Origin: Psammoneis japonica
Taxonomy: Eukaryota
Length of the DNA: 20,000 bases
Assembly: GCA_008632985.1 (NCBI GenBank)
Contig: QPGO01000271.1
Span: 59,924 to 79,923, forward strand
Reading direction: 5' to 3'
Shown: positions 1,051 through 20,000 of the stretch, piece by piece
How positions within the stretch are numbered: position 1 is the stretch's first letter
Layout of the letters: the number at the start of each line of letters is the position of its first letter
Translations under genes and position numbers: made by a program
The notes under the pieces: generated by a model
Told to the model about the DNA's origin: nothing
Seen by the model: only the letters and a program-made list of their open reading frames with translations
Database searches by the model: none

Positions 1051-1139
1051 CAAAACAGCATTTTGCGGAGGACTTGGCGGATGGTGCAGAAGATGCGGGC
1101 AACAAGTGCCCAATGTTCCATGCATGGTCAGTTGCAGGT

Positions 1140-1635
1140 GACAAGCAAAAGCATTGTTCTGGTTGGAGGGCAAAGTGCAACTTCAAACATCACCACCCAA
1201 GTGTGTGCAAGGACATGATGGGACTGAAACCAGGCAAGACTTGTGAAATGCCTCATGAACTGGTTTTGTCCAAGCCAAAGCACATGTCAATCCCAACTTG
1301 TGGTCCCAAGGTTTGCTTTTTACAAGGCAACAACGACACATGTGTTTTTTCTTTGTTGGCCAGTGCACTGCATTGCTCACAAGATGAGTGCGTGACACAT
1401 TGCATCGGTGGTCAAGTTGAGGCTTCTGCAACATCAGCAGCTGATGGTGACTGACGAATGTGATGATGGTCTGACAAAGTTCTGCAACACCATCAAGGTG
1501 GACTGTGCCAGAGATGGCAGCATCACAATGGAAGATTTGCTGTGCAAGAAGCTCACCTCATGTGGGTTGTCAAACAACTGCTGCGCGACTGTGTGCAATG
1601 GTTGGATTTTTGACTCCAGTCATTCACATGCCGCA
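1140..1635 (+). pseudogene. Degraded fragment with papain-like cysteine-peptidase-style motifs (repeat-associated hypothetical protein)
   Basis: FLQGNNDTCVFSLLASALH (1317-1373; Q-x5-C followed by a helix). After a frameshift comes SNNCCATVCNGWIFDS (~1569-1617). The expected catalytic His before 'xxTV' is not present, so the fold call is tentative. Confidence 0.3.
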
Positions 1636-2249
1636 TCAAAAAGGCAGGTCTGCACTGAAAAGGTCTGGAGACATGACAGAATCATCAGCTGCAAAAGTGG
1701 TGACATCATTGTCAGGGACAGCTGCAGAGTGAGAATCTGCATTGTTGGTCGGGGACAAAGGAGAGGGAGCAGTGTGTTTTGTGTGCTGGTGGATCAGTGT
1801 GTCGTGGTGGCTGGCTTCTGTGAAACTGAGAATGCGGTCTTTGCATTGAGGTCAATTTTTGCAAACAACCCAGCAGGCACTGCAGGGAGGGCACTGGAGG
1901 GTCACTGCTCATTTGTGCAGGCACTTGTCAAATGAGATGTGAAGAGCCATTTGGCAGCAGTGAGGGCATGTTCAAGCAAATTGGCTGGACAACTGCCACA
2001 CAAACCACAGGAGAGTGACACAGGTTCCACAGACTAGAATGACAAGTCTGACTGACAACAGCCAATGATGAGTGTGTTGACAAAAGGATGGAGGCAACTC
2101 AGGCCAACACATGAGCACAATGGAGATGATGTGAGAAGGACACGTCATTGGTGATGTGGACACCTGTGACAATGAGGTGACATCATGAGAAACTTGGGAC
2201 AAGAAGAACAATGATGATGGAACACTGCCGAGTGAAAAAATCATGCTGA

Positions 2250-2425
2250 CATGGTGGGAAAGGAGGTGTGGCTGTGGGGCGACATGTTGGGGGAGCAGAA
2301 GTTGAGCACACCCAACATGCAGCACCCCCCCCCAACATGCAGACACCCAGGATGATGCATCTTGGGGGAGAAAACCACTCCCCCATCATGCCAGAGCATT
2401 TCTGACTGATTGGTCCCCCAACATT
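2250..2425. repeat. Cluster of CCCCCAACATG-like motifs in both orientations, with a hairpin
   Basis: Forward copies near 2311, 2329, 2380 and 2415; reverse copies (CATGTTGGGGG-like) near 2250, 2283 and 2358. GCATCTTGGGGGAG (2357-2370) pairs 12/14 with CTCCCCCATCATGC (2378-2391) around a 7-nt loop. Confidence 0.7.
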
Positions 2426-2609
2426 TGGCAGGTTGGGTTGTTCTCTCATTTCCTGTGGAGTTGCGCAAGAAAGCACACATCACAGATGATGTTTTCTTTT
2501 GCATTGATGAAAATGTGCAGCTGAATGAAGCATGGGCTGGCCTTGTCTCCTTGCTGCTTGTGCATGCACTGATGCCAGGCAGCAATGAACACCATGCACC
2601 CTTTGGTTG

Positions 2610-2685
2610 AAAACCTGGAAATCCAGAAAAAAGGAAGCCAAGAAATCCGGAAATGCAGAAACCCAGAAATCCAGAAATGCAGAAG
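2610..2685. repeat. Short array of the (C)CGGAAA-type minisatellite
   Basis: aaacctggaaatccagaaaaaaggaagccaagaaatccggaaatgcagaaacccagaaatccagaaatgcagaa; same 8-bp subunit as 2979-3220. Confidence 0.8.
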
Positions 2686-2978
2686 ATGTGTTCCAGCCGT
2701 GTGTGAACCAAATTGTGCACAAAAACAACACATGCACAATTTTTGCATGGTCTCTGACTTGCGATCGATCTTTCTCCACCAAAAGCATGGACTCGTGCAA
2801 ATTTAAATGATTTGCAACACTGACAAGACTCATGTCAGCATTGCAATGTCATTGGTTTTGTGCAATCCATGTTTTTTGTTGCAACAAACAAGTGGTGACA
2901 CAATGGATGATTTTTGGCAAAATTGTTGCCATCATTTTGATGTGAACACAAACAACTTTTCTGCAATGATGTCTGGCA

Positions 2979-3220
2979 CCAGAAATCTGGAAAAAAGGAA
3001 ACCCAGAAGTCCAGAAAAAATGGAGCCCAGAAACCTGGACAGATGGAAAAACAGAAACCCGGAAATCTGGAAAAATGGAAACCCGGAAATCCAGAAAAAC
3101 AGAAACCCGGAAATCCGGAACCCGGAAATGTGGAAACCCGGAAACCCGGAAAAACAGAAACCCAGAAATCTGGAAACTCTGAAACCTGGAAATGTGGAAA
3201 CCCGAAAACCTGGAAAAACA
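2979..3220. repeat. Minisatellite with 8-bp subunit NNCGGAAA in a ~24-bp higher-order unit (CCCGGAAATCCGGAAAAACGGAAA)
   Basis: Consecutive units cccggaaatctggaaaaatggaaa / cccggaaatccagaaaaacagaaa / cccggaaacccggaaaaacagaaa. Variants are mostly CG->TG or CG->CA. Confidence 0.9.
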
Positions 3221-3229
3221 GCAAAGATT

Positions 3230-4237
3230 TTGGTTTCAGCTCAGACCCCACGGCATGTGCAGAACTTTCCAACAATTGCCGTGCATGTCTGCTTGGCAGT
3301 CCATCCCCTTGATCTTGATTCAAACAGAGGTGCAAAGACAAAACACCTCCCTTGGATGCAGATCGTGGCATGCTCAAATCTCAAATCATGCGCTGCCCTG
3401 AATTTGATCATGGGGTGCCCTCAATTGAGAGTGGGCACCCTCAATCAAGGGTGGGCACCCTCAGCCAAGGGTGAGTGCCACAAATTGATGGCAAAAATGT
3501 GAGGAAAACAGGAGCTGAAGCCGCTTTCTTGCAATGAGGTGAGCTTGTTTGGCATGAATGACAGCTGCAATGCTGCAAATTCATTGACAGAAACAGCACA
3601 CTCTTTGTCTCAGCTCAAACTCAACAGGTTGCACAGAACTTTCCAACAATTGCTGCACATGCCGGGTTGGCAGCCCCACCCCTTTTTCTTGATTCAAACA
3701 GATGCAAAGACAAAACACCTCCCTTGTGGACACAGATTTTGGCATGCTCAAATCTCAAATCAAACACTGCCCTCAATTTGATCATGGGGTGCCCTCAATG
3801 AAGGGTGGGCACCCTCAATCAAGGGTGAGTGCCCTCAACTGAGTGTGAACACCCCACATTGATGGCAAAAATGTGAGGAGAACAGGAAATGAAGCCACCT
3901 TCTTGTGACGAGGCAGGCTTGTTTGGCATGAATGACAGCTGCAATGCCGCGACGTCAATCACAAAAACCAACACACTCTGTGTTCAAGCACCTTGCTGTT
4001 GCCAACATTTTGTTGCAGCTCAGACCCCAGACTCCACGGGATGCACAGAAATTTCCAACAATTGCTGTGTGTGTCATGTTGGCAGCCCGTCACCTGAGTC
4101 TTGACTCAAACAGATGCAAAGACAAAACACCTCCCTCGGGTGCAGATCTTGGCACGCTCAAATCTCAAATCATGCATTGCCCTTAATTTGATCATGGCGT
4201 GCCCTCAATTGAGGGTGGGCACCCTCAATCAAGGGTG
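3230..4237. repeat. Diverged tandem repeat, ~2.5 copies of a ~375-410 bp unit
   Basis: Anchor TTCCAACAATTG at 3267, 3641 and 4053 (spacing 374 and 412). Blocks GCAAAGACAAAACACCTCCC and GCTCAAATCTCAAATCA are in all three copies. TTGATGGCAAAAATGTGAGGA and GCTTGTTTGGCATGAATGACAGCTGCAATGC are in copies 1 and 2. Copy 3 is truncated at the gag remnant. Confidence 0.95.
3412..3479. repeat. 20-bp period array of a 16-bp palindrome (ACCCTCAATTGAGGGT-like); repeated at 3786-3855 and 4196-4237
   Basis: ggggtgccctcaattgagagtgggcaccctcaatcaagggtgggcaccctcagccaagggtgagtgcc. A perfect 14-bp palindrome CCCTCAATTGAGGG lies at 4202-4215. Confidence 0.9.
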
Positions 4238-4826
4238 TTTGCTGAGCTCTTCTCATCCATTGGGATGGTTTGCCCATGCCCACAATGCATCTCTCCCATT
4301 TTTGGTGCTGTCATGTTGCTCAATCCAAGTCCACACTTCCGCATTGACCAAGTGTCCTTTTGACAAACGACAAACAGAATTGAAATGTGCGCTCTTCCAC
4401 ATCATCAACGAATGCAGCCGGGGCTGCCACTGGCCTTGCCACACATCAAAATGGTTTCTTCAGCACCCCAATCTTCTGTGACAAGAGATTCAAGAGTGCA
4501 TCTTCCATCACATCAAAATCTTCCAACTCAAACACTGGCAAAGAACTGACCATTGTGTCCAAGTCCACCATGTCTTTCTCAACGCACTTTCTCTGACAGG
4601 CTTCTTCCAACGCTGCTTGTGCACTGCGCCGACTGGCTCCACTTGCCATTCTTTCTGTGTCTGAGTTGCCTTCCACAACTGCAACATTCTTCAAAGTTTC
4701 AAACCCGTCAAAGTGTGCTGGACAATCTCTTGTGTTGACATTGGCAACGCCACATGTCTGCGGTGCATCATCAACATCCACTGCAAGCCCTGACACCGCC
4801 AAAGCTTGAGCTGGTGCTGCCACCAT
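4238..4826 (-). mobile_element. gag: Ty1/Copia (diatom CoDi-type) gag remnant, N-terminal part
   Basis: TCGVANVNTRD...FDGFETLKNVAVVEGNSDTERMA, then FELEDFDVMEDALLNLLSQKIGVLKKPF*CVARP, and after a frameshift NSVCRLSKGHLVNAEVWTWIEQHDSTKNGRDALWAWANHPNG*EELSKH. This matches the recalled diatom Copia gag pattern (EDAFLNLLAQ..GVLxEPLRYVVRP ... VYRKLKxxL...GWxWIE..D..xNGRxAxxAWxxHYNGxGELSKR). Contains stops, a frameshift and an internal deletion. Confidence 0.8.
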
Positions 4827-5091
4827 GCTTCTTGTGACACAAGGATGACAATGTTTTGTCCATCATGGATGAACAGAGTGACTGCAAGACTCACACAATG
4901 GGCACAGATGGGAGACTGAACGCTCCATGAGCGCCACGGCAACAGGTCCACATGGTCAACTGGTGAATGGGAGGCCACCCCATGCCATTTTGTCTGAATG
5001 AGCACACGCTCTGGGCTTGCCACCCACACTGCTCTGTCCAGCGCTCTATTCCCAGCAGTTGTCTCATCATGAGATCAGATTGATTGATCAC

Positions 5092-6166
5092 TGTTGCTTG
5101 TGTTTGCAGGCGCTGTCAGCACCCGACATCACTCAGGCCAATGGCGCAACTCTGGATGCAACAAAGGTGTCAGGGAATCCCTTGCTTTAGAGCAGCCAAA
5201 GAAAATTGACCAATGTCAAACAGCAGAAACCAGGAACAAGAGCTTGGTCCATGTGGAAGAAGCTGCGTGCCTCCCTCTGCCATCCAGCATTGCACACTTT
5301 GAAAGAACCTCTTGGCAACTGGTCAGTGCCACCATCCCAGATGCGCGTGCAGTCAACTGCTCATTTTTCTCCTTTGGAGGACTGTTTGCACGTGAAGTCT
5401 CCTTCAGGGTGCAAAGCATTCTAAGTCAATGGTGCCAGAACTCACTCCATTGCAGAGTTGGAAACAGCAACTGTCCCATCTGAAGAATCATTCCCAGTGG
5501 AGTCATCCATGACAGAAGACGGTGGATGGACACCAGACTTGCCACGCACTGCTTTGTCTGGCCCACCATCACCCGGCTTCCGGATTCATTCCAAGACATG
5601 CTGCAATCTCTGCCTCAATGGGGGGCAACGTTGTTTGAAGAACTTGATTTTTGCATGTCCCCAGACATGCTGATTTGCTGTTTCTCTTCCTCGACTTTGA
5701 CTGCAGGGAGCGATGGTTCAGTTGAAGTGGGTGCCACTGTTGGATGGACGACGGCTCTTGCAGGAACCCTGTCAGTTGATTGTGCAGGGCCAGTTTTTGG
5801 AAGGCACCCGTTGTCATGCCAAGCAGAAGCATGTGGGATTCTCTCCATCTTCTGATTCATTTGCCGATTTGTGGAATGCTGCAACAGCAAAGCTTTGGTG
5901 TCATGTTTGGAGCAGCTCACTTTCTCCCTTCCAGCTCCAACTCCTGAGGAACAGTCTGACAATGTCAGAGATTTTCATGCACGGCAAAATGGAGCCAACA
6001 CCCTTGCCTCTGACTGGGACATGCCAAGCAAGATGTTGCATTCCCGAATTGCCATGGAAGAATCCCACAAACCTCAGGACTCCCTCATCCTTTCTGCAAG
6101 TCAAATGGGTGAAAGGACACCAAGACAGACATGCCCCACTCCACACACTCCCACTCAACACAAGAG
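5092..6166 (+). mobile_element. Non-LTR retrotransposon (LINE) fragment: post-RT region plus RNase H domain
   Basis: Across frameshifts: CLCLQALSAPDITQANG; QQKPGTRAWSMWKKL...LKEPLGNW; FQDMLQSLPQWG; RNase H motifs GSDGSV..GATVGW, CAGPVFG..PLSCQAEACGILS (SYRAEAYG-like), CNSKALV, TLASDWD and WVKGHQD (6106-6126). Confidence 0.85.
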
Positions 6167-7140
6167 ATGTGACTTGCAATCTCATGGAGCTTTGGTCTGG
6201 GCAACAACTCAGTCAGCACATCTGCTGGATTCGTGCATCTGTCTTCCCAAGCAATGCACACAATTCCTGTGGTCTGCGCTTCATGGGTCTTGTGACACAC
6301 AATTGCACTGTGCTTCTTCTTCAATGCAGCCTCCAGTCTGGTTGAGTTCTTAAAGACAGCTTCATTGTCACAAAAGACATCAGTGGCCCCATCCATGGGG
6401 ACACCCAGCACACAAAGCTTGCAGTGCAAGGCTTCCATCTGCTCCATGGCAGTCTTCATTGCAACAAACTCTGACCCAAAAGCAGATGACTCAACAGTGT
6501 TCTGCCATTTAGAGTGGCACAAAATGGGTGCTTGCTGGATGAAAGTCAGGATCCCAGTGTGGGACCTGCGCGTCACACAACATCTGGCATGGTCAGCATC
6601 AACAAAGCAGACAGCAGCCGCTGCACTGTCCCCACGTGCTTCTGGCATGTTTGGCGGCAATGGTTCAGCCGTGCCAGGGCAATGTTCTTCCCAATCACAC
6701 TTGGTGAAATGGCTCTCATCAAATGCAGGCTCAGTGTTGTCAAACACAAGAGCAGACCTTGAAAGAGCCTTTGAGCAGGCAAAGATGTGAAGCACCTTGT
6801 CCAGGTGCACTGCTTGCAGTGCTGCAAGGTGGGAAGACATGAGTGAGAAGGCAACAAAAATGTCCACTCATCCCAGCTCAACTGCCCAACAGAGCACCCC
6901 AATGAGGCCTTGAAAGTGGTTTGCTGTTCTGGCGTTCAGCTCTGGCGAACCATCCAGCCCCAAGCTCAATGGTGTCAACACGTTTGTTGGAAGTCACCCA
7001 TCTGTTTTCTCAAGCACTCAGTTTCAACGTCAGCAAGGGCTCAGTGGCATGCAAGTCAGAGGACACAGTGGAGCTCCAGTGTGTCTTGCAGATTTCCTGC
7101 TCCACTTTTGCCTGCATTCTTTGAGGGGCCAACAGCTTTT
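6160..7140 (-). mobile_element. pol: Ty1/Copia pol remnant: reverse transcriptase C-terminus plus RNase H
   Basis: LPTNVLTPLS..LDGSPELN..ANHFQGLIGVLCWAVELG*VDI, HLDKVLHIFACSK, FVDADHA..VTRRSHTGIL, SKWQNTVESSAFGSEFVAMK, VFCDNEAV, LKKKHSAIVCH, TNPADVLT. These are canonical Copia RNase H motifs. A CGA->TGA stop lies at ~6868-6870 and there are upstream frameshifts. Confidence 0.95.
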
Positions 7141-8073
7141 TGCATTGGCTCTCCATGGCCAAGTTCACAACAAAGCTGATGCCAAAGATGGCAGCAACAC
7201 AACCAAAGAAATGAAAATGACAAGCATGGGACAACAGCCAATGGAGGACCCAAGCTTCCCATGTGCTCCAGCAGTGCCATTGTCAATGGCATTGCCAAAC
7301 TTCTTGCCGTGGTTCTTGCGGGAGCATGTCATGGCTGCAATCAGCTGAGCAAGCAAAATGCATCAAACATGAGGATTCAAGCAACAAAGGACGAGCTGCA
7401 AAACAAGGAAATGCAACATTGGCAGCAACACCAAAGTGAGCTCAGTTTGATTGTTGAGTTGTTCCAAACTGTTCCCATGACAACAAAAGTGAGATGAGCT
7501 TGAGTCTGAATGAGAGGCAACATGACAAGGCACCAACACACACAGGGCAAAGATTCCAGTTTCTGCACTTGCACAAGTCATTTCAGTCCTTGAAAGTCCA
7601 GCAGAAAGGCAGGCAATGAAAATGCAGAACTGTCAATGCTTCAACATCAAGGGAAATGTCCCGTCTGTGTCAGCATGATTGCACCAGGGTCACTTTCTAA
7701 AATGCATGGCACAAGCACTGTCAGAATCTCCCCACCACCAGCATCATTCTGAACAGGTGCTGAAGTTTGACCCAAACCATGTGCCACTTTGCTCTTTGCT
7801 TTGGCAACGAGTCCATCCAGTTGTCATGAAAAAAATGAATGGAGTGCATGGTGGCCATTGGCAGAAACAGAATTCCACAGGTTGACAAATCTCCTCGAGC
7901 CTTCATCACGTGCTGTTTGCACATCTGGTGGGGCAACAATCTGACATTGCACGCAAACTTGCATGTGACATTCTTGCCCGTCATGTCTGAATTTTTTGCA
8001 CGCCGTGTCAGAAATCTTGCTTGCGGTGCAATTTTTCTTGTCATGTGTTGCAAGAAAATTTGAGTGCAACATC

Positions 8074-8250
8074 CATGCGGACAACGTTGCCAACATTTTC
8101 AAGTGCAACACTTGACCACTTTTCACTGTGCAACAATTTACCTTTGAACTGGTCCCTGACTCACATTGCTTTCAAACCGTTCTTTAAATCCAACAAGCAC
8201 ACGGACAACATTCCTGACATTTTGCAGTGCAACACTTGGGTGCTTTTCAC
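8074..8250. repeat. Two diverged ~53-bp direct repeats, 124 bp apart
   Basis: catgcggacaacgttgccaacattttcaagtgcaacacttgaccacttttcac (8074-8126) versus cacacggacaacattcctgacattttgcagtgcaacacttgggtgcttttcac (8198-8250). Confidence 0.8.
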
Positions 8251-8349
8251 CATGTGAAATGTTTCTTTCCGGTCAATGGCCCGACTCACATTCCATGATG
8301 TTGCAGCTGCCCCAACTGAGTTGATTTCATGGTCAATGCCTTTGCTGTC

Positions 8350-9400
8350 ATTGTTTTCTGCTGCGTGCTGGTGAATGTTGCTGCCATGCCACCCGAGTGC
8401 TCGTTGCGTCCTTGCTTGCTTCTGTGGGTTGTTGTTCGCTCTGCCTCCTCAAGAACCCATTTGTGTTAAAAGCACTGTTGTTGGTTGCTGCTGCTTCTGG
8501 AGTCTCTTCCTCTTTGCTCCCCTGTTCATCATTCCTTCCTGTGGCCTCCTCCTTGCTGTCACTCCAATCTGTTTTCAGAGCTGCCCATCCCCTCATGCTG
8601 CCCTTCTTTTTCTTCTTTCTTTTCTTGCTGTGTTCGCTCTCTGATTTTTTTGTCTGCAGGCACCATGCATTGACTCTGCTGCAATCCGTTCTCTCCTTTG
8701 CCACCACATCGTAGAGTTTGTTGTGCTTGTTGATCCCATCCTGGTTCCATCCTTGATTTTTGCTTTGCGCCTTTCCCCATGAAAGTGCACTTTTGGACCA
8801 TTGGCCATGTCGGTTGTTGTGCCCCTCTGTTTTGTTTGAATTGCTCTTCGATCTCTGCCACTGATGTGGCCGCATTGCAGCAGCTCTCATGCATCAGCCT
8901 GGCAAAAGCTTCCGCACTTGTTGCCAGCCAATTGCTGACACCTTGGCTGGCCACTGTTTTAAAGTGTTCCATTCATGCTGCCAGGGAGCAGCAATTTTCC
9001 AAGAACCAGAAGTGCGTTTTTGAGACGATGCCCTGCCCTTTTCAATGTCTTCAACACTTGGCATTCCATTGCATCTGGCCATCTCTGAGCAAGAGTCAAT
9101 GGATGAGAACACTGCTCCATGTCATCCAACCACAGCCCAAACAGCAACCATCTTCTTTCTAAAAACCTCCTGCCTGTTGTTTCTTCTCCTGTTTGGTCTT
9201 TTCCTCACCTTCTCCTTGTTCTCTTCCCACCAAACTGCACAGTCACTTGCATCCACGTTGAGGTGCTTGCAAACCTTTTTCTGCATTTTGCTCCCAAAAG
9301 CCAACTCGACCTTGTTGTGCATCACGAACTTTGTCTTGGGGGGGCACACAGCAGCCGCAATGCAGTCGGCCATCTGGCCATCCACAAACTTTCTCCTTGC
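8350..9400 (-). pseudogene. Degraded repeat-associated hypothetical protein ('S[D/A]EAF...KYT...GWxxxGIxxxNxL' type), probably a DNA-transposon accessory ORF
   Basis: Colinear pieces in three frames: TKFVMHNKVELAFGSKMQKKVCKHLNV...WWEENKEKVRKRPNRRRNN; VSNWLATSAEAFARLMHESCC; QKCTFMGKGAKQK; QGWNQDGINKHNKLYDVVAKER; then a basic KKRKKKKK stretch and acidic tail. The motif set is recalled from multicopy diatom hypothetical proteins; function unknown. Confidence 0.5.
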
Positions 9401-10999
9401 TGCCTCCAAGCTGATGACCAACCGCAAGCTCCACATTGTGCAATCCTGTCTCTGCCGTGTCATGGGTGCTGACTGCAACAAAGGACACAAGATTGGCACA
9501 AGCTGGCCACCCTGTTTGTGCAATGTCACTGCAGCGCACATGCCTGGTGAATCATTTTGCACCAACATGTTTGCTCATCCACTCCAGTGTGTCTTGTGTC
9601 AACAAAATTCCTCCCTCAGACCAAACCCAGTCCTGGAGTGCGTGCCTGCCAGCTGCCAGCATGCCTGTTTGTCATTCCCAAAAATGCTCCCTCTCTTTGA
9701 ATGCCAAATTTTTCAAATCGCTCATTGTTGAATGTCAGCTGATGAGTTTTACATTCCTTTTGAATGGCAGGTGTTGTTTGCATCCTCACATTGTCCGTTC
9801 ACTGTGTTTTGCATGATCTGCGCAAAGAACAATGGCACTCCCAACTGTTGTTTGCCAGAATTTTCAAATCACCACCCAATTTTATTTTTTGGGCACAATT
9901 TTCACAGATGAAAGGGCTGCAGTCCGAACACTTCTTTTTGCATTTTTGGCTTGCCTGTGGCATCTTGCTTTGCCATCTGGGTCCCCGCACTCTTGGCCAT
10001 CCCCTGTTCATCACCCGCGACAAACAGAGCATCTTTTCGCACAGTTTGCAACTGGCCAGCGCGTTTAAAATTTTCATGTTTTGGTCATCCAGTTCCAGCT
10101 AAAACTTTCCAGGAAACCAGGTTCATCTCTTTGCCCTCAGATGAGTTCCAGGTCCAGGTGGGACCTCACACTGCTGAGCTGTGACATCGACAGATTTTTG
10201 AATCACGTCGCATGTCGCGCACGTGGATTTCTGCGTGATTTTTTTGACATTTTGTGTCATTTTACGGTGCACTTGTTGAGCGATCCGTCCAACAACTTTT
10301 GACATTTTTTGTTACAGCGCGATTCTACAATGTCTTAAGAATCACATGGGGCAGGCGCATTTGCAAAAACATTGAGTGGCAAGAGGCACATTTGCACCAC
10401 AAACTTGGCCGTTTATTTGATGTTGAAGATGAACATGTCCATTGATTGAATTCTTGCACTGCGGAGCTCGCACACAGAATTCTGCGGGCCCAATGTCACA
10501 CGGAGTCCCACCCAGGGCTGGAACGCGTCCTCACTCATCATCCAGTCTTGCTCTCACCCTTCTGTCTTCCTCAATCACACCCGATTCTTCTCTCGCGGTT
10601 TTGCAAGATTCGTGCAGGTGCTCCGTGGTGCAATCCACTGATGTGACCCTCTCTGGATGTGCGCACTCCTGCACAGAATGCCCTCATTCCCAACAGCGCT
10701 TTCCGGCACAATGCAAAGTCTCCGCTCACTGGAGGTGGGCAACGTCCCTCTGCGAAAGGCCAGGGGATGTCTGCGCCGGCATCATGTTTGTCAAGATGAG
10801 CCACGTCCATCACGTTGTCTTCTCTCACAGTCACTGCATCCTCTCTGACAGGCAGCAGAGCACACATGATTTTTGGGAGCCGGCATTCCATGTCTTGTTT
10901 TTTGGCAAGCCACCATGATCACACAAGGATTTTGCATCAAAAGGTCAACTGGCGTCTCCAGTTCAAAGTCCACCAAATCTAGCGTCAAAGTCATCTGAC

Positions 11000-12140
11000 T
11001 TGTTCACACAGCCGCCACCTGTCAAATGGGTGAAGGGCCATCAAGATCGGCGCGCTCCAATGCATGCCCCACCCCTCAACGCCAGAGTCAATGTCCAAGC
11101 GGATCAATTGGCAGGGGCATGCCAAGGACAGCACCCTTGGGACACCACAATGGTGCTGCCCTTTCCGAATTGTCACTCACATTTGAGTCTCCCAGATGGC
11201 ACGTTGACCGCAGGCCACAAACGTCATGTCAGATGCACGGCCACCACCCCACAATTGCTGCAATGCATCATTGAATGCAGCCAGTGGAGTCCAGAGGTGA
11301 CAGAGCTGATTGATTGGGATGCTCATGCCATCCTCATAAAACGTCATTCCAAACAACACGTCGGAACAGTCAATCAAGCCAGCTCACAATCTTCTCCCCA
11401 CCAATGAGATCGTCCGCCGATGCAACTCAGTGAGACCTCACCAGTGTCTTCATTGTGAGCATCCCATGGAAGACAGGGACCACATGCTCTGCTGTCCACA
11501 TGATGAACCATGGCAAAGAAAGTTTCCACAAGGTTTGAGGAGGTGTTGTGACCGAATCGACACCATGCCAACCCTTCGGGACTTCTCATTGCAGTCCATT
11601 GAAGCATGGTTTCACAGTGAGATGGTTTGTCTTAAAGATGTTGATTGCAGATGCAGAGTTCTGTGGCAGGCTCAATCCGATGTGGGGTGGTGGCAAGTGT
11701 TCAGTGGAGGGCATTCCCTTCTGTGGAGTGTCATTCAATCTGGACATCCAAGAGATTCTGGGATCCTTCATCAGCACCAGGAGGAGAACAAACAACCACC
11801 AACCTGGACAGTGCAGACAGGAACGTTTGTCTGGTGGCAATGGCGGGAATTGTGGGAAGAGCACAACAAACACTTCCATGGCCATGATGCAGAAACTGGA
11901 CAATCTTTGCAGAGATGCAAAGTGGAGGCTGAGCTGACAGCTGTGTGCAACAAACATCAGGAACACTTGGCAAAAGACCAAGGAGTTCTGCTTGATTCTG
12001 TGGCAGAACACAAGACCTTTGCTGCTGCATGCATGCAAAATTGGATTTCTGTGGTTGAGCCCAGATTTGAGGAAAGCCTCAAGGAAGCCAAGAGGCTGGC
12101 AACACGCAGCACATGCACCATTGCCAGTCATTTCCGTCGG
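11000..12140 (+). mobile_element. Second LINE fragment: end of RNase H, zinc knuckle and C-terminus
   Basis: VKWVKGHQD...LNARVNVQADQLA; QWSPEVTELIDWDAH; HNLLPT; CLHCEHPMEDRDHMLCC (CX2C...EX3HX3C knuckle, ~11445-11495); QSDVGWWQVFSGG.S..W; WRELWEEHNKHFHG (WxxRNxxxHG-like); ends TIASHFR. Confidence 0.85.
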
Positions 12141-12199
12141 GCGTCTCCTCTGGGAGACGCCGCTTCAGGCTGGTTGCGCACACTTCTGCCACACCTCCA

Positions 12200-12960
12200 A
12201 GTGGAGTTTGCTGGAAGTGTGGGTTGGCCGGTGCCGGTGTTGCTGGGCAAAGGTGCAACAGCACTTAAAACAATTGATTTGGTTTTTTTAGCGTCAAAGT
12301 CACTTTGTCTGTGCATGTGTTGCAACTGATTCTGGTGTTTTGCACCCACCCCTTCAAAAATGGTTGCAAGCTGCACCTGCACAACCTGTTGCTGCCCACA
12401 CATCCCACTGCAACACAACAATTGAATGCCCAAGAGTCAACGCATGTTGTCCAGTTTTTCATGCAAATTGAACATCTGGAATTCTTCCTCAATGTGGTCT
12501 CTTTGCAAATGACACAACAGCCTTGCAATCCAGCATCACCTCATCACAGTGCATCTGGGATTGCCCAAGTTGCATCTCCACATTTCCAACACATTGTCTT
12601 GCTCCACCATTTCTCACAAAACATTGAGCATGTGTGGCCTCAACAGCTTGTTGACAAAATCCATTTTCAATGTCATTCTCCAGCTGAGGTGGGAAAACAC
12701 GCATTCCAGGACTCCCTTTGTCAATGCAACGCATCCAAGGCCACCCAGCGTGTCGCACTTCTTGCAATTTGAACACAACATGTTTGATGTCAGCCCCAAG
12801 CATTTGTTGATGTTGTTTGCTGCTGCAAAGATCGTGGATTGTGATGGGTTTGGCTGCTGTGTGAGCAGTTCTCTGCACAGTCACCAAATCTTGAAATTTC
12901 ACAAGTGGGGCAACAGGCTGTGCATTCTCTCTCTTGGAAATTTTTGGCATCCTCAAATGA
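12200..12960 (-). pseudogene. Possible degraded coding fragment with a Cys-rich, zinc-finger-like segment
   Basis: Protein-like frame in 12489..13076(-), followed in another frame by CVICKETTLRKNSRCSIC...CVAVGC..RLCRC...CNTC. Weak, because Cys is inflated by the mutation bias. Confidence 0.2.
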
Positions 12961-13058
12961 AATGATTGAAGATTGTGTTTTTCAAATGTCTCATGTCGCT
13001 GAAAGAGAACACAAAATTTTGGTGTTCTTTGTAAATGCTGTGGCATGGATTTCCCATG

Positions 13059-13177
13059 TTTGTGACACAACTCCAAACACTGTCACCAAAATGGGTTTCA
13101 CATCTTGCACAATTGCACAGATTTGTGATGCAATTTTTCACACTGCCACCAAAACAGGCAAGACATTTTGCACAATT
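13059..13177. repeat. Two-copy tandem repeat, 63-bp period
   Basis: tttgtgacacaa...acactgtcaccaaaatgggtttcacatcttgcacaatt versus tttgtgatgcaa...acactgccaccaaaacaggcaagacattttgcacaatt. Confidence 0.8.
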
Positions 13178-14199
13178 CAATTTTCATTCCTGCGACAATT
13201 GCAGTGACTTGACATGCAGCCCCATGTGATCCTCCTCACACCAAAGCGCCGTGGTCACAATGCAACACAGAAACTTCACAATTGTGTCATTGTGTGGTGT
13301 TGCCAGGTTGCACCGTCAGCTTGCCGCAACACCCACAATTGCTTTCCATGTCGTTGTTGTGCTCCACCTTCCATGTTGCATCTCGTCTCCCTCCCCAATT
13401 CCAACAGGACTTGATCACAAAAACAACAAAATCTCTGGCAACATGTGCATTTCCAACCCAGCCAGCATGTGAGCAAGAGGACTTTGACATGCAAGAAGGT
13501 CTCTTCTGTTGGATTGTCTCCCACACACATCAACCATTCATTCAGCACTCTCAACATGGATGGATTTCTCAACGCACTTCCTGCTGGCCAAGCTTTGGCA
13601 ATCTGGGCAAGAGCACTTTGTGGCTGTTCAATGGTTTGCAATGACAAACATCTGTCCTCCGCGTTGAGGGAGGTGGCAGTGGAATTGTCAGCACAGAAAG
13701 CCAGATGAAGAGATGCTGATGCCAGGAGAAAATCTTTTGCCCAGAAAAGAAAGCGCCAACACAACACCAGTGTCCGGGAAAATGGTGCATCCACTGATGG
13801 GATTGGCTGTGCTTCTGTTGGTTCCCATGTGGAGGGACTTTTGATTGAATCACAGAAGGAAATTTCAGCAGAGTTTTGCTTGCACTCAAACAGATTTGGA
13901 CAGTCAAAGTCAATCAATTTGTCATTGTTTGGCACTTCAGCCACCAAAGACCTGCAACTGTCCGAGGAAAGAAACATTGCCACTTCCGTTAAAAAAAAAA
14001 AACAGACAACACAAGTGATTGTGAAGCACCTGTTTCCGGTGCCGTCAATGCCATCCAACAATTGCCAGAAGGAGCAGGTGCAGATGACTGTTGCAATGAG
14101 CCACTCTTCACTGACCAAGCAGAGTTGGACCACCACAGTTTTGGATCATGCAATGACTTGACAAAACCAGCCAAAATCCCCAATGCCAAGAACGTTGCT

Positions 14200-14560
14200 G
14201 TTGACAACAACATGTTGGCAGTTGGCATTGTTTTTGGTGATGAGACCGCCGATGTCTCCACCCAGGAATGCAGAGACACAGCACGTTGTCAGGCACTGGT
14301 CAGATCTGGCTTCAATGTCCACACTGTGGACTGCCATGAGACAAACACCCCACATCCAAATCACATGAACGCCGGTGTGCATGTGCACTTGGTCAATCCA
14401 AGAACTGGGCTGCCAAGGAATGCATCTGCAACTCTGTGTCATTGGATGTTGCATCTGTGACAAAATGGCATTTCAACAACAGGGTCTTGTTGGACTCTTT
14501 TTTCAGTCAATCGTTGGCTCGACTCCATCAAAAGCTGTTGCATCAGAGTGCACGATGTTG
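14200..14560 (+). pseudogene. Degraded Rossmann/SAM-methyltransferase-like domain, paralogous to 19300-19800
   Basis: MLAVGI...QECRDTARCQAL..GFNVHTVD...HMNAGV, then after a frameshift CNSVSLDV...KWHFNNR....FFSQSLARL. The motif order is the same as in the 19.3-19.8 kb domain. Confidence 0.45.
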
Positions 14561-14799
14561 CAACATCTGCGCGCATGATAAAAACACATTGCCACATTAT
14601 AAAATTTACTTGTCTGCACACAACGGTTTTTGTCATTCAGGCAATTGTTAATTTCCTGCTGTTCTTCATGTTTGAACACAGATTTTTTTTAATTTTTGTG
14701 CTCTGCCTTTTTCACAACAACTGACGATCTTTAACGACAAGCCAAACATTGCAATTGCATGCAATGAAATTTTCATCATGTGAAGTGTGCACCAATCAT

Positions 14800-15610
14800 T
14801 TAATCAACAACTGTGCTCCAATTTGCCAAGTCGTCTGCATCGTCCTCTTCATTCCACATGTCTTGTCCGCTCTCTTGCAAGAATTTCAAATGTGCCGCTG
14901 CCGTGTTGGATGTTTCCTCGTCACCGTTCCAAAAAAGCCACACTGCATTTCTCTTGCATTTGGGTGAACATCATCAAGAGGAAGAGGTCCCTTGAAATGC
15001 AGAATCGCACCACTGCTCCCCTCTTGACGTTGTGTTGTCGGCTTCTTTTTCTCTTTCTTCATTTTGCCCGTCCTGTTTTTCTCTTCCTTCTTCATCTTGG
15101 CACCGCCTGTTTTCACTGTCACCGGCGTCTTTCCATCCGAATCCTTCTTTTTCATTGATCCCGTTGCTGTCGCCTTCATTGTCTCTTGTTGTTGTTGTTG
15201 TTTTTTTTCTGTTGTGTGTCACTTTGTTTTGGATCCATGATTCTGACTTCTCTCTGTGCTGTCTCCATTTCTGAGTGTTTCTTTGTGATTGTTCGCATGC
15301 ATCACTTGAAGGCACCCACGTGTTCTTCACGCACCTTAACGCGTGTGCAGAAATCCATGTTGTTTTCCAGTGCATGCACCCTTTCTCCTGATGCTGTCAC
15401 TCACAACATTTTCTTCCATCAATTCTGCACTCCGCGCTGCCCTTTCCCGGTGCAATCTCATGTGGGATTTCCCTGGGAGAAGTCACATGCGCACGTCTGG
15501 CAGGTTTTTGTGTTCACAACTCCAAATCCTGCCAGGCACGTGTGTGACTTCTCCCATGCACCACTCTGGTGCATTTCTGCAGAAACCAGATTTTTTGGTG
15601 TTGGAACAGC
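14800..15610 (-). pseudogene. Possible degraded coding fragment with Lys/Glu-rich low-complexity region
   Basis: Protein-like segments in shifting frames: VHALENNMDFCTRVKVREEHVGAFK, MKKKDSDGKTPVTVKTGGAKMKKEEK..., HLKFLQESGQDMWNEEDDADDLANWS. No family recognised. Confidence 0.3.
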
Positions 15611-16698
15611 AACCATGGCGCCACGCAACCTGTCGGTCGCCTCTCTGTCGCAAGACAACAATGGTTCCTGCCTCAAGGAGGCCGCATTTGAATCTCTCTT
15701 TGCCAACAGTTTTGGAGTGATCGATGGCAACAAGTGGAGCCGTGTCAAAGCGATGATCAAGACGTTGAAATCCAAGGTTCAGCTCCACTGCGACTCCACT
15801 TCTGATCCCTCTTCGAATTGGATCATGCTTGCCCATGTGTGGCAAAAGTCAAAGGGCAGACCTCATTTTTTGTGGAGCTGATGGCTGTGAACTGCATTGT
15901 TGCAAAGGAGCTTGGGTGCAAGAGCTTGCTGCACTTTCTTTCCACAAAAAGATCAAGGCACCAAACATCCTCATGCATTGGAGCATCGCCATGCTCCCAA
16001 AGCAGCGGACATGAAAGTTGTCGGCGACAAGGCAAAATCAACAGACATTGCAACCAACATGATGGCAAAGATTTCCATGTTGCACAAGCTTCTCCATGAT
16101 CCCGGGTTGTGCGACCCAAAGGGAGAGCCACTTGTTGAGCACATTGAGCTGAGAAGTTTTGAAGGGAAGGTTTTGCGTTACGCGCAACACCTTCACATTG
16201 GTTTTTTGATTCTTCATGACAAGATTCTGCCGCACGCACCTGAAAGGAATGGTGATTGTGATCATTGGCTTTGCTCCCTGTTCGGCGAATGTGACGAGAC
16301 ATCAACTTGCATCAACTTTTTGGAGAATTTTCTGGCTCTTGGTCACTGTGATGAGATGACCAAAGACGAATGCCCTGTGTCCTTCCCTGAATTCGTAAAG
16401 TCGTTGTTCCGCCAACACAAAAATTCTTGGGAAAAGCCCATGCAACTGGCGATGCTCGATGTCGAGCGAGAACAAATGTGTGCAACACATGTCAATGAGA
16501 CTCTTTTAAGATGTGTGAAAATTGATCGTGTGGTTTCTGCCGCTGACAATTCCGGCAAAAGCAAGGCTGCAAGGGATTGTTTTGAGGCCATGTGGAAAGC
16601 CAGGCTTCGTGACTTTGCCACTCAGTGCAAGAAGAAAGAATTCGGCAATGCAATTCCATCCGTTACGAAAAATGCTTGGAAACAAAAAAATCCAAATG

Positions 16699-16783
16699 GT
16701 GTGAATCCATCACATTGTTTGAATGATTGTTTGTGCTCCTCTTCTTGTCTCCAATTCTTCTGTTCTTCTTGCAACCTCTTTAG
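16699..16783 (+). other. Spliceosomal intron (85 nt, GT...TAG)
   Basis: G|GTGTGA donor, pyrimidine-rich body, CTCTTTAG| acceptor. Removal joins ORF 15897 (phase 1, G) to CC at 16784-16785 (GCC) and continues in the frame of ORF 16723. Confidence 0.8.
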
Positions 16784-18985
16784 CCGCCTCCCTTTGCTCC
16801 TCAAGCCCCAGTCTCAAAAACCCCAAAGATGGCAAACCTTCTGATGTTTCTCAGAACGAATTGCTGATTCTCCAAGATGTGCCCACTCTCAAGGAACAAT
16901 TTGAACATTCCCAAACAAAGTGGTTGACCCTCGGCACAACTTGTCAGTCACCTCCTCCTCTGCCAGACAATTTCACAAAAGAAGAGCTTGTGAAAGTGTT
17001 TCCTGAACCATCTCCATTTGCGATTCCGGGTGAGGTGAAGTCACAACATTCTCACCTTGTCGTCTTTGAGGAAACCCCCATTTCCAGTTCCTTTGAGGGG
17101 AACTGTGTCAAGCACCAGTCACTCCACAGCATCTCCAATTTCTGCTTGGTGAATCACCTCCGCAAGTTCATGCATGGATTTGAAAACGGCGCAGCTCCCA
17201 ACAATCTGATGCAAGAATTGATGGTTGCGATTGCTTGCCCGACCCAGTCAACCTCTCATTTTTCCGACGTGGTCACTCATTTGTGACACACGGACAAGAT
17301 GCATCAGAAATGCTTTTTTGGATTGCGAGTCAGTGTGTCGTTGACACTCCGTGCAGTGTTGGAACATGGCGAGCCGAACAAAAAAGGGATGGACCAGAAT
17401 GCAAGTTGCGCTGTCGGATCTGTTTTGGTTGTTGTGGCCAGAATTACGAAGTCGCAGACGGTGAGTTAGCTGAAGTGGGACCTGCTCACAAGCCTGGTGC
17501 TGTCTTTGGCAGGGACAAGTGGGAGAAGCTTCCAAAGGATGTGCAGGCATGACAGCCTCAATCTTGGACGCCGCGCAACTCTGCGAGGACGAAATTAATC
17601 TTGTTGCTTTGAAAGAAATGCGTTCCTTCCATGACCCGCACCGTGACAGTCTTTTCGCGGCTGAGCTCCGCAAGATGGTTGGAGCCAAGCATGTTAGAAG
17701 GGAAGGCGTGGAAATTCAAGTGAAGTGCATCTCGTCGTCCGGCAAAAAATCCGTCAATTCGAAACCGAGCTGCACATTGACAAAGAGGATTGTGACATGG
17801 ATGGGTGCACCAAGACTGGTGCTCTTTGCTCGTCACTGCGAGACGCTGTTGGTCGCTCTTGGTCGTTGAAGGTTGTCACTGCATCCAAAGGCAATGCTGG
17901 AAACTGTGTCAGTTCGGCACATGGGCATGCCGAGTTCCGATCGCGTGTGCATGGTCATTTCGCAAAACTTGATCTGTCACATGCTGCAGAAATGATGAGA
18001 CCCGTGGCCCTTCGTTCTCTGTCAGGCAAGCCCCACAGAAACATCAAAGATTTTTTCCTTGACCCTCACTCTGTGTGAGTGGAAGATGAAATTAGCAAGC
18101 CAAATCTTCCGTCCGACACAGTTGAGTGTCCCGTCATTGTCATGCCGAGGAAACGTCTTCCGTTTGCCATCGTGGAGGACTTTAATTTCTCACAACCTCG
18201 ATGAGGCTGGTGCACACGATTGCTTTTGTTGCACCATTGTGGCTGGGTGTCAAACCAGATTCTCCCGTTTTTGCCACTTGTTGTGCAACACAGATGCTGT
18301 GAAGCGTCCTTTCGTGGCTGGCGATTGTGTCCTTCATTGCTTCAGAGAAGCCACAAGGCCACTCGGCAGCATTGCAGGGGATCGCAACAACCGATGCATG
18401 CAGAGCCCGGGACTCGATTTCAAGGAGGTTCATGTGGCAGAGTGCTGGACGAAACTCAATGGTTTGATGGACTTGCTTGTTGGCGGACTGGTTGTTGTCA
18501 TGGACTGGATCAATGACAATGTTGGCAAGCCAACGTTTGGCCACAAGGCAATCGAGGACATGTTTAAAACCGTGGTCCAAACATGGGATCATGCAGGTGC
18601 TGATTGTGGAGAGTTCAGATGCATGAACTCTGTGCAGACATTGATGCTGTGTGGCACAGGGATCCATCCTCACCCCGGTGGCCAAGTTGGGAGCGGCAAA
18701 GCAAATGGAAGAAATGAAGGTCCCAGTGGAGGAGCGCGATTTACTCTTGGAACGGACAGAGGGTGATTTTGATTTGGAAGACTGTGGAAAGAATGGCCCA
18801 GAGTCTTTGCTGTATGACCTGAGTGCAGCTCGTGAAAAGATGGGAATCTGCGATGTCTTTTGTTGCGGACAGCATCTGTTGCTCTTGTTCTCTGATGGGC
18901 AATCAATGATCAAGCGGTTTGGAAGGTGTGAATGGGAGCCAGTCCCATTCGTGTCGATTGATGAAGTTCGAGCCGAACTGGAACG

Positions 18986-19070
18986 GCAAAGAGAGGTCTT
19001 TTTCATGGCAATCACATTTGTTTTTTGTCTGATTGTGCTGACATTGTCACATTGATTCTCGTTCTAACAG
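18986..19070 (+). other. Probable spliceosomal intron (85 nt) with donor GCAAAG (likely mutated from GTAAAG)
   Basis: T-rich body, GCTGAC branch-like motif, TTCTAACAG| acceptor at 19070. A donor at 18986 leaves CG + G = CGG and joins ...EVRAELE-R-KKAAGDLLSFAMNK in the frame of ORF 19090. The other candidate donors (18996, 19008) give an immediate stop. Confidence 0.6.
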
Positions 19071-20000
19071 GAAGAAGGCCGCCGGTGATTTGTTGTCATT
19101 CGCAATGAACAAAAGTGACGATTGCGAGGAGGAGTCAATTGACGAGAAAACAAGCAAACTTCCAACTGCTTGCATGGGTGAAGAGGACAAAAGCGAAGAG
19201 CCTGTTGACGATGAGCACAACCAAGTTGCACATTGCTCTGAGGGTGAAGAGGACCACAGCGACTTGGGAGATTGTTTCGCAAGTGACGAAACTGACGGGG
19301 AAACACACAATGTGCTGTGGTTGGGGATGACCCGTCCGCTCAATGCAAGGCAACTGTCTTCTCAAGAATTGTGCTCTGAGAAGGGGGTGGCCTTAGTGTC
19401 GTCCGACCAACACAGGCGAGACGAGGCCGCGCAATGGCATTTGAGGAAACTAACAAAACAATCACAAACGTCGTTCCAACAGTTTCTCTCCAAGATGGCC
19501 ATCCTGATCTGCACTTAAATTGCAATGTGAAAGCAAGAGATTTCGTCAAGAGAGTCAAGCAGCAGTTTGAGAAACTTGTTGATTTCGACAATCATGGGTT
19601 CGACCAAATCATGTTGGACTGCTGCTGGATGCCAGATGGAGAGTGGCGCGATTCTCGTTTTGGGACGACTCAATTTTTCCAGAATCTAATTGATCTTCGG
19701 GCCTTGCTCTCCAAAAACGAAGAAGGGGGGGACACAGTGATTCCCTTTGCTCTTGCAACCTTCTTCCAGGTTGTCAAACAATGGAAGAAATTGTCGGCTG
19801 TGTTCGACATGTGCACAATGGACAATGATGCTGCAAAGAGCCATGCGAGCACATTCTTTGCAAGTGACCTTACAACCCAAGAACAACAAGAACAGTGGTT
19901 GAGAAAGCCTTCTTGCAAGAAAGAGTTGGGAAATCACTGTGAGTGAATGATGGATTGATGCGCGCACCCCATTTTAGAAAACAAAATCTGACCAGCACTT

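Follow-up and report, generated by a model that had tools for sequence, protein, structure and literature searches.

Methylated CpG decays in silenced transposons. In Neurospora and other ascomycetes, RIP is directed at repeats, changing CpA to TpA, which raises TpA and lowers G+C. For hypermutation of invading DNA specifically at TpA there is a single description, a 2026 preprint on another alga, Bigelowiella natans, where TpA-restricted changes accumulate in integrated giant-virus and virophage DNA (Mettrop et al., bioRxiv 10.64898/2026.01.13.699255); a search of the full-text literature on TpA erasure returned no other paper. In mutation-accumulation lines of B. natans, TpA was the site of all 230 AT>GC changes in two integrated viral regions (virophage 20, NCLDV 210/211), with a viral-region rate of ~6e-7 per site per generation compared with 3.5e-10 elsewhere, in 11 of 15 lines. 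The preprint also reports clusters depleted of TpA and enriched in CpA and TpG, together with TpA-poor reverse-transcriptase and DDE genes. It names RIP as a comparison, and its Discussion describes ADAR hyper-editing of repeat-derived double-stranded RNA, an A-to-G change that prefers an upstream U/T. Cytosine methylation and transposon control have been covered for diatoms (PMC9998398).

We analyzed a 20-kb stretch of Psammoneis japonica DNA, hereafter the window. As in B. natans, TpA alone is targeted by the A:T to G:C change, giving TpG and CpA on both strands: 68 TpA steps remain where 1336 are expected, 11 of 12 informative Tyr codons in a pseudogene are converted, and at five of the listed places other copies still carry TA. 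B. natans is a chlorarachniophyte and belongs to another lineage than P. japonica. Its active viral regions are partly depleted of TpA (Rho 0.45), whereas the observed/expected ratio (o/e) is 0.05 over 20 kb here. The B. natans process affects foreign or repeat DNA only, according to the preprint; the window is repeat DNA, with no recognizable host gene for contrast and all 40 of its 500-bp bins depleted of TpA. The preprint contains no occurrence of CpG and no flanks of surviving TpA, so the CpG comparison and the TTA/TAA context described below are absent from it.

With methylated-CpG decay the window shares a CpG deficit, an excess of TpG and CpA, Arg CGN codons turned to Trp, His, Gln or Cys, and copy-private changes of CG to TG/CA, although methylation is presumed here. 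Unlike in plain CpG decay, TpG and CpA are here also fed by a second process, which runs in the opposite direction. The likeness to RIP lies in repeat-directed, dinucleotide-specific transitions that kill transposon genes; unlike under RIP, TpA is destroyed 20-fold, CpA is up 1.7-fold and G+C rises. RIP was rejected as a candidate, as it demands C>T changes at CpA with TpA enriched, and here TpA is depleted and CpA enriched. ADAR hyper-editing operates on RNA, whereas in the window the changes lie on both strands of the DNA and extend to tandem DNA that is non-coding.

TpA and CpG content along the window

The shortfall of TpA amounts to a 20-fold depletion that spares no part of the window, with o/e values of 0.00–0.13 in 1-kb windows throughout and tandem and non-coding DNA erased as well. 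CpG is far less uniform, ranging from 0.17 to 0.79 in the same 1-kb windows (0.17–0.39 in the CpG-poor blocks). TG (n = 2109) and CA (n = 2180) stand at ~1.7 times expectation. Taken together, the four pyrimidine-purine (YR) steps make up 4825 of the 19999 steps, near the expected quarter, so the losses of TA and CG are offset by the gains of TG and CA.

The initial annotation had counted by hand 15 CpG in 1–1020, 12 in 6181–7140 and 51 in 17281–18240, with 6 TpA in the last interval. All four counts are exact (CpG o/e 0.26, 0.19 and 0.84; TpA o/e 0.10), and the unevenness of CpG that they indicated extends to the whole window (40 bins of 500 bp, chi2 159.6, 39 dof, p 1.6e-16). Likelihood segmentation placed a single CpG change point at ~14.82 kb, the CG share of YR being 7.4% before this point and 16.6% beyond it; applied to TpA across the whole window, the same segmentation found no change point. 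The two stretches that had been singled out as younger or less methylated are indeed CpG-richer: 15600–20000 holds 170 CpG against 257.6 expected (o/e 0.66) and 21 TpA against 292.2 (0.07), and CpG o/e is 0.68 at 10100–11100. Table 1 lists the four blocks of the window and its features.

Table 1. Blocks and features of the 20-kb window (YR, pyrimidine-purine steps; bracketed values are the CG and TA shares of YR)
Feature	Position	Strand	Remarks
Block A: CpG-poor, TpA-erased repeat-derived DNA	1..9999		CG 157, TA 24 of 2421 YR (0.065, 0.010)
Block B: CpG-richer island	10000..11500		CG 60, TA 9 of 376 YR (0.160, 0.024)
Block C: CpG-poor, TpA-erased	11501..14300		CG 43, TA 5 of 692 YR (0.062, 0.007)
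Block D: CpG-richer, TpA-erased, high-copy	14301..20000, continues past window end		CG 208, TA 30 of 1336 YR (0.156, 0.022)
Tandem repeat, ~374 bp, 2.7 copies	3228..4240		TpA = 0 in 3001-4000
Short conserved coding motif, CpG-poor copy	6100..6166	+	72% identical to 11021-11087
Same short coding motif, CpG-richer copy	11021..11087	+	pair 88% alike in purine/pyrimidine alphabet
P0001-related pseudogene (function-unknown family), part frameshifted	15615..16688	+	in-frame stops 15879, 15888

The window is repetitive, with 7871 similar contigs in sequencing run X1. Summed depth of these contigs reaches 140299 in the bin of block B that contains a very high-copy repeat (~10064–10587), and is 3883–15426 in 11 of 11 bins from 14256 onward in block D, compared with a depth of ~34–37 for exact single-copy contigs. 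Among the paralogous contigs listed, those of block A are ~81–82% alike and those of block C ~84–86%.

What TpA remains is not evenly spread. It is 2.2–2.6 times commoner in the CpG-richer blocks: the TA share of YR, 0.0093 in the CpG-poor blocks, is 0.022 at 14301–20000 (odds ratio 2.44, p 0.0008) and 0.024 at 10000–11500 (odds ratio 2.61, p 0.017). The TA share follows the CG share over 40 bins (Spearman rho 0.46, p 0.0026), the CG share follows the summed depth of similar contigs (rho 0.60, p 5e-4) and residual TpA follows copy depth (rho 0.57). These correlations use 30 or 40 bins that show spatial autocorrelation and amount to effectively only four blocks. The two losses thus share some variable, and calling them uncoupled, as the initial annotation did, is too strong.

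The survivors have a distinct context. A 5' T or a 3' A accompanies 62 of the 68 TpA steps, which divide into 23 TTAA, 39 with a single T or A flank and 6 with none; from the other YR steps, a fraction of 0.068 is predicted to have both flanks (p 6e-11) and 0.466 one or more (p 8e-15). TpA lacking both flanks accounts for 3 of the 844 unflanked YR steps where CpG is richer and for 3 of the 1701 where it is poor. Unflanked TpA is ~99% erased, and its loss is saturated, in both kinds of DNA. The TTA/TAA survivors are either a slow-reacting class or mark a context in which TpA is re-created. This context is new here, and constitutes an extended target motif that any candidate deaminase must reproduce.

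Codon and copy comparisons

Mutation directions could be read against P0001, an unmutated relative of the right-hand pseudogene that was first detected at E 4e-86. A tblastn alignment of P0001 residues 1–365 gave 193 identical columns of 366 (E 1.2e-115). The 17 aligned Tyr positions read 6 His, 5 Cys, 1 Tyr, 3 Phe, 1 Ser and 1 Ile, so that 11 of 12 informative codons have turned to His or Cys; the presence of both outcomes indicates that both strands were targeted. Four of the converted Tyr codons are preceded by T, 2 His and 2 Cys, giving no signal of strand-specific shielding by a 5' T. The 22 aligned Arg positions read 6 CGN, 2 AGG, 2 Trp, 2 His, 2 Gln, 2 Cys, 2 Lys, 2 Thr, 1 Asp and 1 Ser; 8 of 14 informative codons have become Trp, His, Gln or Cys, and 6 keep CGN. 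Judged from its codons, the pseudogene bears both signatures, the TpA one being the more complete, and the initial description of a gene carrying mainly the TpA signature is not borne out.

Other copies in run X1 were compared at 40 listed places out of 1997 that differ. At eight of these listed places, including 15735, 15825, 15826, 16444 and 16925, CG is retained in other copies but is TG or CA in the window, and at three of these CG restores the P0001 residue (Arg41, the Ala under 15825–15826, and Arg283). Private CpG decays make up 5 of the 10 listed difference rows of block D. Since family copies retain CG where the window has decayed, CpG decay went on after the copies diverged. The converse change is seen at 7862, 10431, 10434, 10437 and 10614 among the listed places, where other copies have TA and the window TG or CA; at 10431, 10434 and 10437 TA is found in 35–55 contigs.

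Self-comparison in the plain and purine/pyrimidine alphabets found no long internal repeats except the 374-bp tandem and an 8-bp array, E-values in the two-letter alphabet being invalid. Copies 1 and 2 of the tandem differ at 64 of 372 sites, including 8 TG/CA doubles, 7 CG-versus-TG/CA and 0 TA-versus-TG/CA differences, and they are 78% identical in the plain alphabet but 93% when only purine and pyrimidine are distinguished. The short motif at 6100 and 11021, which we take to resemble an RNase H motif, has CG in the 11.0-kb copy and TG/CA in the 6.1-kb copy at three sites and the reverse at none. These 67 nt are all that the two places share, and the blocks are different repeat families.

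Two probable transition processes and competing accounts

Two processes, A:T>G:C at TpA and G:C>A:T at CpG, converge on TG/CA to extents that vary per block, as the initial annotation had proposed. We consider it probable that the window is dead repeat DNA under two independent transition processes, of which TpA erasure is the more complete. One process converts TpA to TpG or CpA on either strand and is near completion in all blocks, leaving remnants almost wholly in TTA/TAA context; by analogy with the proposal for B. natans, its enzyme may be a TpA-directed DNA adenine deaminase. The other is ordinary decay of CpG to TpG/CpA, less complete and varying ~2.5-fold among blocks, for which deamination of 5-methylcytosine in the silenced repeats is the presumed cause. 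This decay is most advanced at 1–10 kb and 11.5–14.3 kb, where the DNA is diverged and of lower copy number, and least advanced in the high-copy blocks at 10–11.5 kb and 14.3–20 kb. With TpA erasure the more complete, CpG content holds the remaining information on age or methylation, and the difference in completeness bears on the order of events. The initial annotation placed TpA ahead of CpG in a fast, burst-like manner. TpA loss is indeed more complete in every block, with unflanked TpA saturated; the window demonstrates neither a burst nor a rate, and a steady process ~3 times faster fits equally.

That steady account would have both decays running in parallel since silencing, with TpA ~3–6 times faster per site, no burst or early saturation, and blocks differing in age only. 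From CpG-richer to CpG-poor blocks the TA share drops ~2.4-fold and the CG share ~2.4–2.6-fold, residual TpA correlates with CpG, and the log-survival ratio is ~2.9 from the codons of the right-hand gene (CpG 6/14, TpA 1/12 surviving) and ~2.6 in the CpG-poor blocks. The loss of CpG from Arg codons exceeds that implied by an o/e of ~0.6–0.66, which makes a constant rate ratio of ~3 possible. Against this, the ratio computed from dinucleotide shares is ~6.2 in block D but 2.6 in the old blocks, unflanked TpA is close to zero whether a block is CpG-poor or CpG-richer, and in B. natans the measured rate is ~1000 times background and episodic. We regard parallel decay as unlikely. It is less likely still that the CpG contrast has nothing to do with time, the right-hand family and the 10–11.5 kb island having begun CpG-richer or less methylated while TpA was erased alike. 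The blocks do belong to different repeat families with only the 67-nt motif in common, and the initial annotation itself allowed for lower methylation. However, the private CpG decays of block D and the 8 of 14 changed Arg codons indicate that the right-hand copy is decaying, and the three CpG differences between the motif copies all run one way. CpG may serve as a relative clock, as the initial annotation proposed: the CpG-richer blocks have a far greater depth of similar contigs in run X1, which fits a younger age, but age is inseparable here from methylation and starting CpG.

RNA-level editing fares worse. ADAR-like A-to-G editing of transposon transcripts fixed by reverse transcription would suit DNA that looks in part retroelement-derived, by the RNase H resemblance of the motif at 6100 and 11021. 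According to the B. natans preprint, ADAR usually prefers an upstream U, but the target in B. natans is integrated viral DNA mutating in culture. In the window the two strands are nearly equal, with 6 His (antisense) and 5 Cys (sense) and near-equal TG and CA totals, and tandem and non-coding DNA is erased too; we think this origin very improbable. The narrower case of A>G changes confined to the sense strand, as ADAR-type editing fixed by retrotransposition would leave, was rejected, sense and antisense changes being about equal. That a modified base misled the sequencing or the assembly is scarcely credible. No point in favor of such an artefact was found. Run X1, which may be the assembly's source, has contigs identical to the window over 515, 1053 and 1303 bases, and at 10431–10437 it has TA in other copies. 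The consistent change of Tyr to His/Cys, judged against an independent protein, also speaks against it.

A bolder extension of the two-process reading, which we offer tentatively, is that a stramenopile alga possesses a TpA-directed, DNA adenine-deaminating defence that keeps acting on old repeats, taking unflanked TpA first and completely and TTA/TAA slowly, so that each copy would carry three nested clocks. If true, these clocks (fast TpA, slow flanked TpA and CpG decay) could be used to date silencing, and the kinetics of the mutator could be measured from sequence alone. Should the process that strips repeats here be the same as in B. natans, it is likely to be widespread among SAR protists.

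Open reading frames and family searches

TAA and TAG stops vanish from TpA-erased DNA, leaving long false ORFs in six frames; the window has 69 ORFs of at least 100 aa. Of the 63 listed stop-to-stop ORFs, 49 with a length of 120 aa or more were compared with Pfam and none matched a family; nor did read-throughs with X at stops covering the three plus-strand frames of 9501–12502, 15501–18202, 17901–20000 and 4301–7302. Rfam gave no match at gathering thresholds. No homologue was found for ORF 10919–11404 against longer proteins, or for residues 614–942 of the 9501–12500 read-through. The left-hand elements, said initially to carry both Arg and Tyr replacements, thus yielded neither a Pfam family nor a homologue for codon comparison in the ORF, read-through and homologue searches.

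The P0001 family comprises 74 relatives at E<=0.001. Searches for the DNA of these relatives returned none in viral contigs and none in metagenome contigs, and the names of P0001 cluster members are uninformative. Pfam applied to 14 of the 74 left 12 without a family and gave only unrelated or sub-threshold matches for 2. A protein atlas offered a weak DUF2828/TROVE lead for the family (0.88, against a mark of 0.9).

CpG and TpA content along the window

A recount reproduced exactly the four hand counts of the initial annotation: CpG occurs 15 times in 1-1020, 12 times in 6181-7140 and 51 times in 17281-18240, and the last interval contains 6 TpA. Over the whole window there are 68 TpA versus 1336 predicted by base composition (observed/expected, o/e, 0.05) and 468 CpG versus 1165 expected (o/e 0.40), together with 2109 TpG (o/e 1.73) and 2180 CpA (o/e 1.71). 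In 39 overlapping 1-kb windows, o/e ranges from 0.00 to 0.13 for TpA and from 0.17 to 0.79 for CpG. Since both suspected processes are transitions, which leave the total of pyrimidine-purine (YR) steps unchanged, we measured TA and CG as shares of these steps; they make up 4825 of the 19999 dinucleotide steps, near the expected quarter.

CpG content is strongly heterogeneous (chi2 159.6, 39 degrees of freedom, p 1.6e-16 for 40 bins). Likelihood segmentation of the window placed a single CpG change point at ~14.82 kb, with a CG share of 0.074 to its left and 0.166 to its right, and returned no change point for TpA. The heterogeneity test, the change point and the block shares tabulated below establish that the proposed CpG contrast is real and that CpG is not uniform along the window. 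The CpG-richer block on the right also exists, but it begins near 14.3-14.8 kb rather than at 15.6 kb. TpA and CpG loss had been described as uncoupled, which is an overstatement: residual TpA is not flat. Relative to the CpG-poor blocks (1-9999 and 11501-14300), it is enriched 2.4-fold in 14301-20000 (p 0.0008) and 2.6-fold in 10000-11500 (p 0.017), and TA share covaries with CG share from bin to bin (rho 0.46, p 0.0026).

TG and CA are out of balance in 6001-8000, 8001-9000, 10501-11500 and 17501-19000, with extremes of -0.27 at 11001-11500 and +0.26 at 18501-19000. The edges of these stretches show no simple match to those of the CpG blocks. The imbalance suggests that one or both processes are locally strand-biased.

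CG and TA as shares of YR steps by block, and right-block places at which other copies hold CG
Feature	Position	CG share	TA share
CpG-poor block	1-9999	0.065	0.010
CpG-richer block	10000-11500	0.160	0.024
CpG-poor block	11501-14300	0.062	0.007
CpG-richer (right) block	14301-20000	0.156	0.022
CG in other copies, TG/CA in the window (among the places listed)	15735, 15825, 15826, 16444, 16925		

The right-hand pseudogene

The ORF at 15891-16841 has a sole protein match (E 4e-86), P0001, a 407-aa unmutated relative without a Pfam family. By tblastn, residues 1-365 of P0001 align to 15615-16688 (identity in 193 of 366 columns); two in-frame stops, at 15879 and 15888, fall inside a stretch that another frame fits better. 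Given this alignment and the two stops in the frame-shifted stretch, 15615-16688 is a pseudogene from a protein family of unknown function. The family comprises 74 relatives at E<=0.001, all metagenomic or unnamed in their source; a language model finds it weakly similar to DUF2828/TROVE proteins (0.88), which is the sole lead. An imperfect 83-nt palindrome (15474-15556, 76% self-complementary) lies just upstream of the pseudogene start.

We compared the codons of the pseudogene with P0001, leaving out the frameshifted stretch. Opposite the 17 aligned Tyr residues of P0001 stand His (6), Cys (5), Tyr (1), Phe (3), Ser (1) and Ile (1), an 18th Tyr facing a gap; 11 of the 12 positions informative for TpA are converted. 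His and Cys are about equally frequent, and therefore both strands were hit. The 22 Arg residues correspond to CGN (6), AGG, Trp, His, Gln, Cys, Lys and Thr (2 each), and Asp and Ser (1 each), with decay products at 8 of the 14 positions informative for CpG. These tallies show that the gene, previously said to carry mainly the TpA signature, bears both, the TpA signature being the more complete. Apart from this overstatement and that of uncoupling, the original observation is real.

Surviving TpA and the pace of its loss

TTAA accounts for 23 of the 68 surviving TpA; a further 39 have one flank (5' T or 3' A) and the last 6 lack both. The window's remaining YR steps serve as the null: 6.8% of them carry both flanks and 46.6% carry one or both (p 6e-11 and 8e-15, respectively). 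ATA/TAT are the rarest contexts of surviving TpA, at 6% of oriented flanks. CpG-poor and CpG-richer blocks do not differ in how their survivors divide among the flank classes (p 0.72). The TA shares of the individual classes show that unflanked TpA is essentially gone in both kinds of block; TpA erasure is saturated at these sites whatever the CpG level, and the link between residual TpA and CpG is due to flanked sites.

Surviving TA per YR steps by flank class
Flank class	CpG-poor blocks	CpG-richer blocks
Unflanked	3/1701	3/844
One flank	15/1198	24/735
Both flanks	11/214	12/133

The TTA/TAA survivors may reflect protection, by an extended site preference of the mutator, or re-creation from TCA/TGA, for example TCA to TTA by C-to-T. 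The single retained Tyr codon of the pseudogene follows a T and is itself conserved with P0001, and this one case favours protection of flanked TpA over re-creation. The four T-preceded converted Tyr codons (2 His, 2 Cys) give no sign of strand-specific shielding by the 5' T. A cluster of 8 TpA, all with a T or A flank, occupies 223 nt of A+T-rich sequence (14579-14801) at the left edge of the high-copy block; G+C is 0.41 in 14501-15000.

If the starting shares are taken to be those predicted by base composition (26.7% TA and 23.3% CG), the observed shares correspond to TpA survival of ~8% (14301-20000) and ~3.5% (CpG-poor blocks), and to CpG survival of ~67% and 28%, respectively. The resulting log-survival ratios of TpA to CpG, ~6.2 and 2.6, argue against one constant ratio, and in this respect disagree with a steady TpA process only ~3 times faster than CpG decay. 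The codon-based ratio in the right-hand gene is ~2.9 (TpA 1/12, CpG 6/14), however, so such a steady process remains compatible with the window. Of the claim that TpA loss ran ahead of CpG decay in a burst-like manner, the window demonstrates the greater completeness but not the burst. The interpretation as a whole is partly supported: two distinct processes are at work, of which TpA erasure has gone further towards completion. A stretch of 20 kb is too little to establish "uncoupled", "burst-like" or CpG as a clock.

As a general phenomenon, TpA erasure is already in print for Bigelowiella natans (Mettrop et al., bioRxiv 10.64898/2026.01.13.699255). That preprint lends external support to a fast process: it gives, for viral regions, ~6e-7 per site per generation versus 3.5e-10 elsewhere, and places 230/230 AT>GC mutations of these regions at TpA, in 11/15 lines; from its 211 mutations, 6169 TpA and 3132 generations we computed ~1e-5 per TpA per generation for B. 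natans. The preprint makes no mention of CpG, whereas here TpA erasure is set against CpG decay. What the window newly provides is the order of the two and the finding that survivors sit in a TTA/TAA context.

Related copies, repeats and other coding content

Contigs of sequencing run X1 were compared with 4300-20000, and 7871 matched at >=80% likeness (1264 at >=99%, 1943 at 95-99%, 2877 at 90-95% and 1787 at <90%). Window-identical contigs have a depth of ~34-37. Summed depth, which is not copy number and serves only as a gauge of how much similar sequence exists, is 39-1691 in 17/19 bins left of 14256 and 3883-15426 in 11/11 bins from there on. The exceptions on the left are 12160-12683 (3250) and 10064-10587, a short repeat reaching 140299 versus ~35 for single-copy contigs. 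Across 30 bins, which are autocorrelated and effectively about four blocks, depth is positively correlated with the share of CG (rho 0.60, p 5e-4) and with that of TA (rho 0.57, p 0.001).

Forty of the 1997 places at which copies differ are listed. Among these, the other copies hold CG where the window has TG/CA at eight, five of them among the ten in the right block, and TA at five (7862, 10431, 10434, 10437 and 10614), with no TA case in the right block. Three right-block CG events give back the P0001 residue (Arg41, the Ala under 15825-15826, and Arg283); CpG decay in the window copy thus went on after its split from relatives. At 10431, 10434 and 10437, TA makes up at least half of the depth and the window copy has TG or CA; 10001-10500 still holds 7 TpA and 22 CpG. 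The short repeat appears to be a partially erased member of a family mostly unmutated elsewhere.

Copies 1 and 2 of a 374-bp tandem (3228-4240), in which no TpA is left, differ at 64 of 372 sites: 8 TG-versus-CA doubles, 7 CG-versus-TG/CA, no TA-versus-TG/CA, 19 other transitions and 22 transversions. The differences are mostly transitions, as copy identity climbs from 78-84% to 93-94% once purines and pyrimidines are collapsed. The doubles show that, once the unit had duplicated, the two copies settled the same ancestral YR step separately. An array of 8-bp units (2586-3240; consensus near GAAACCCG / GAAATCCA, 25 registers found), which periods of 24 and 32 also fit, is relatively rich in CpG (12 in 3001-3500).

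No Pfam family was found in 49 ORFs of the window or in X-at-stop read-throughs of four stretches, and an Rfam search of the window gave no match. Long ORFs are present in all frames because TAA and TAG are gone, and they are not evidence of genes. A 67-nt coding motif, which may be RNase H-like, is common to 6100-6166 and 11021-11087; three sites are CG in the CpG-richer copy and TG/CA in the CpG-poor copy, and none the reverse. One run X1 contig joins 5953 to 11003, leaving out 5049 bases, a joint that fits the DNA at ~5.3-6.2 kb and 11.0 kb being diverged copies of one element family.
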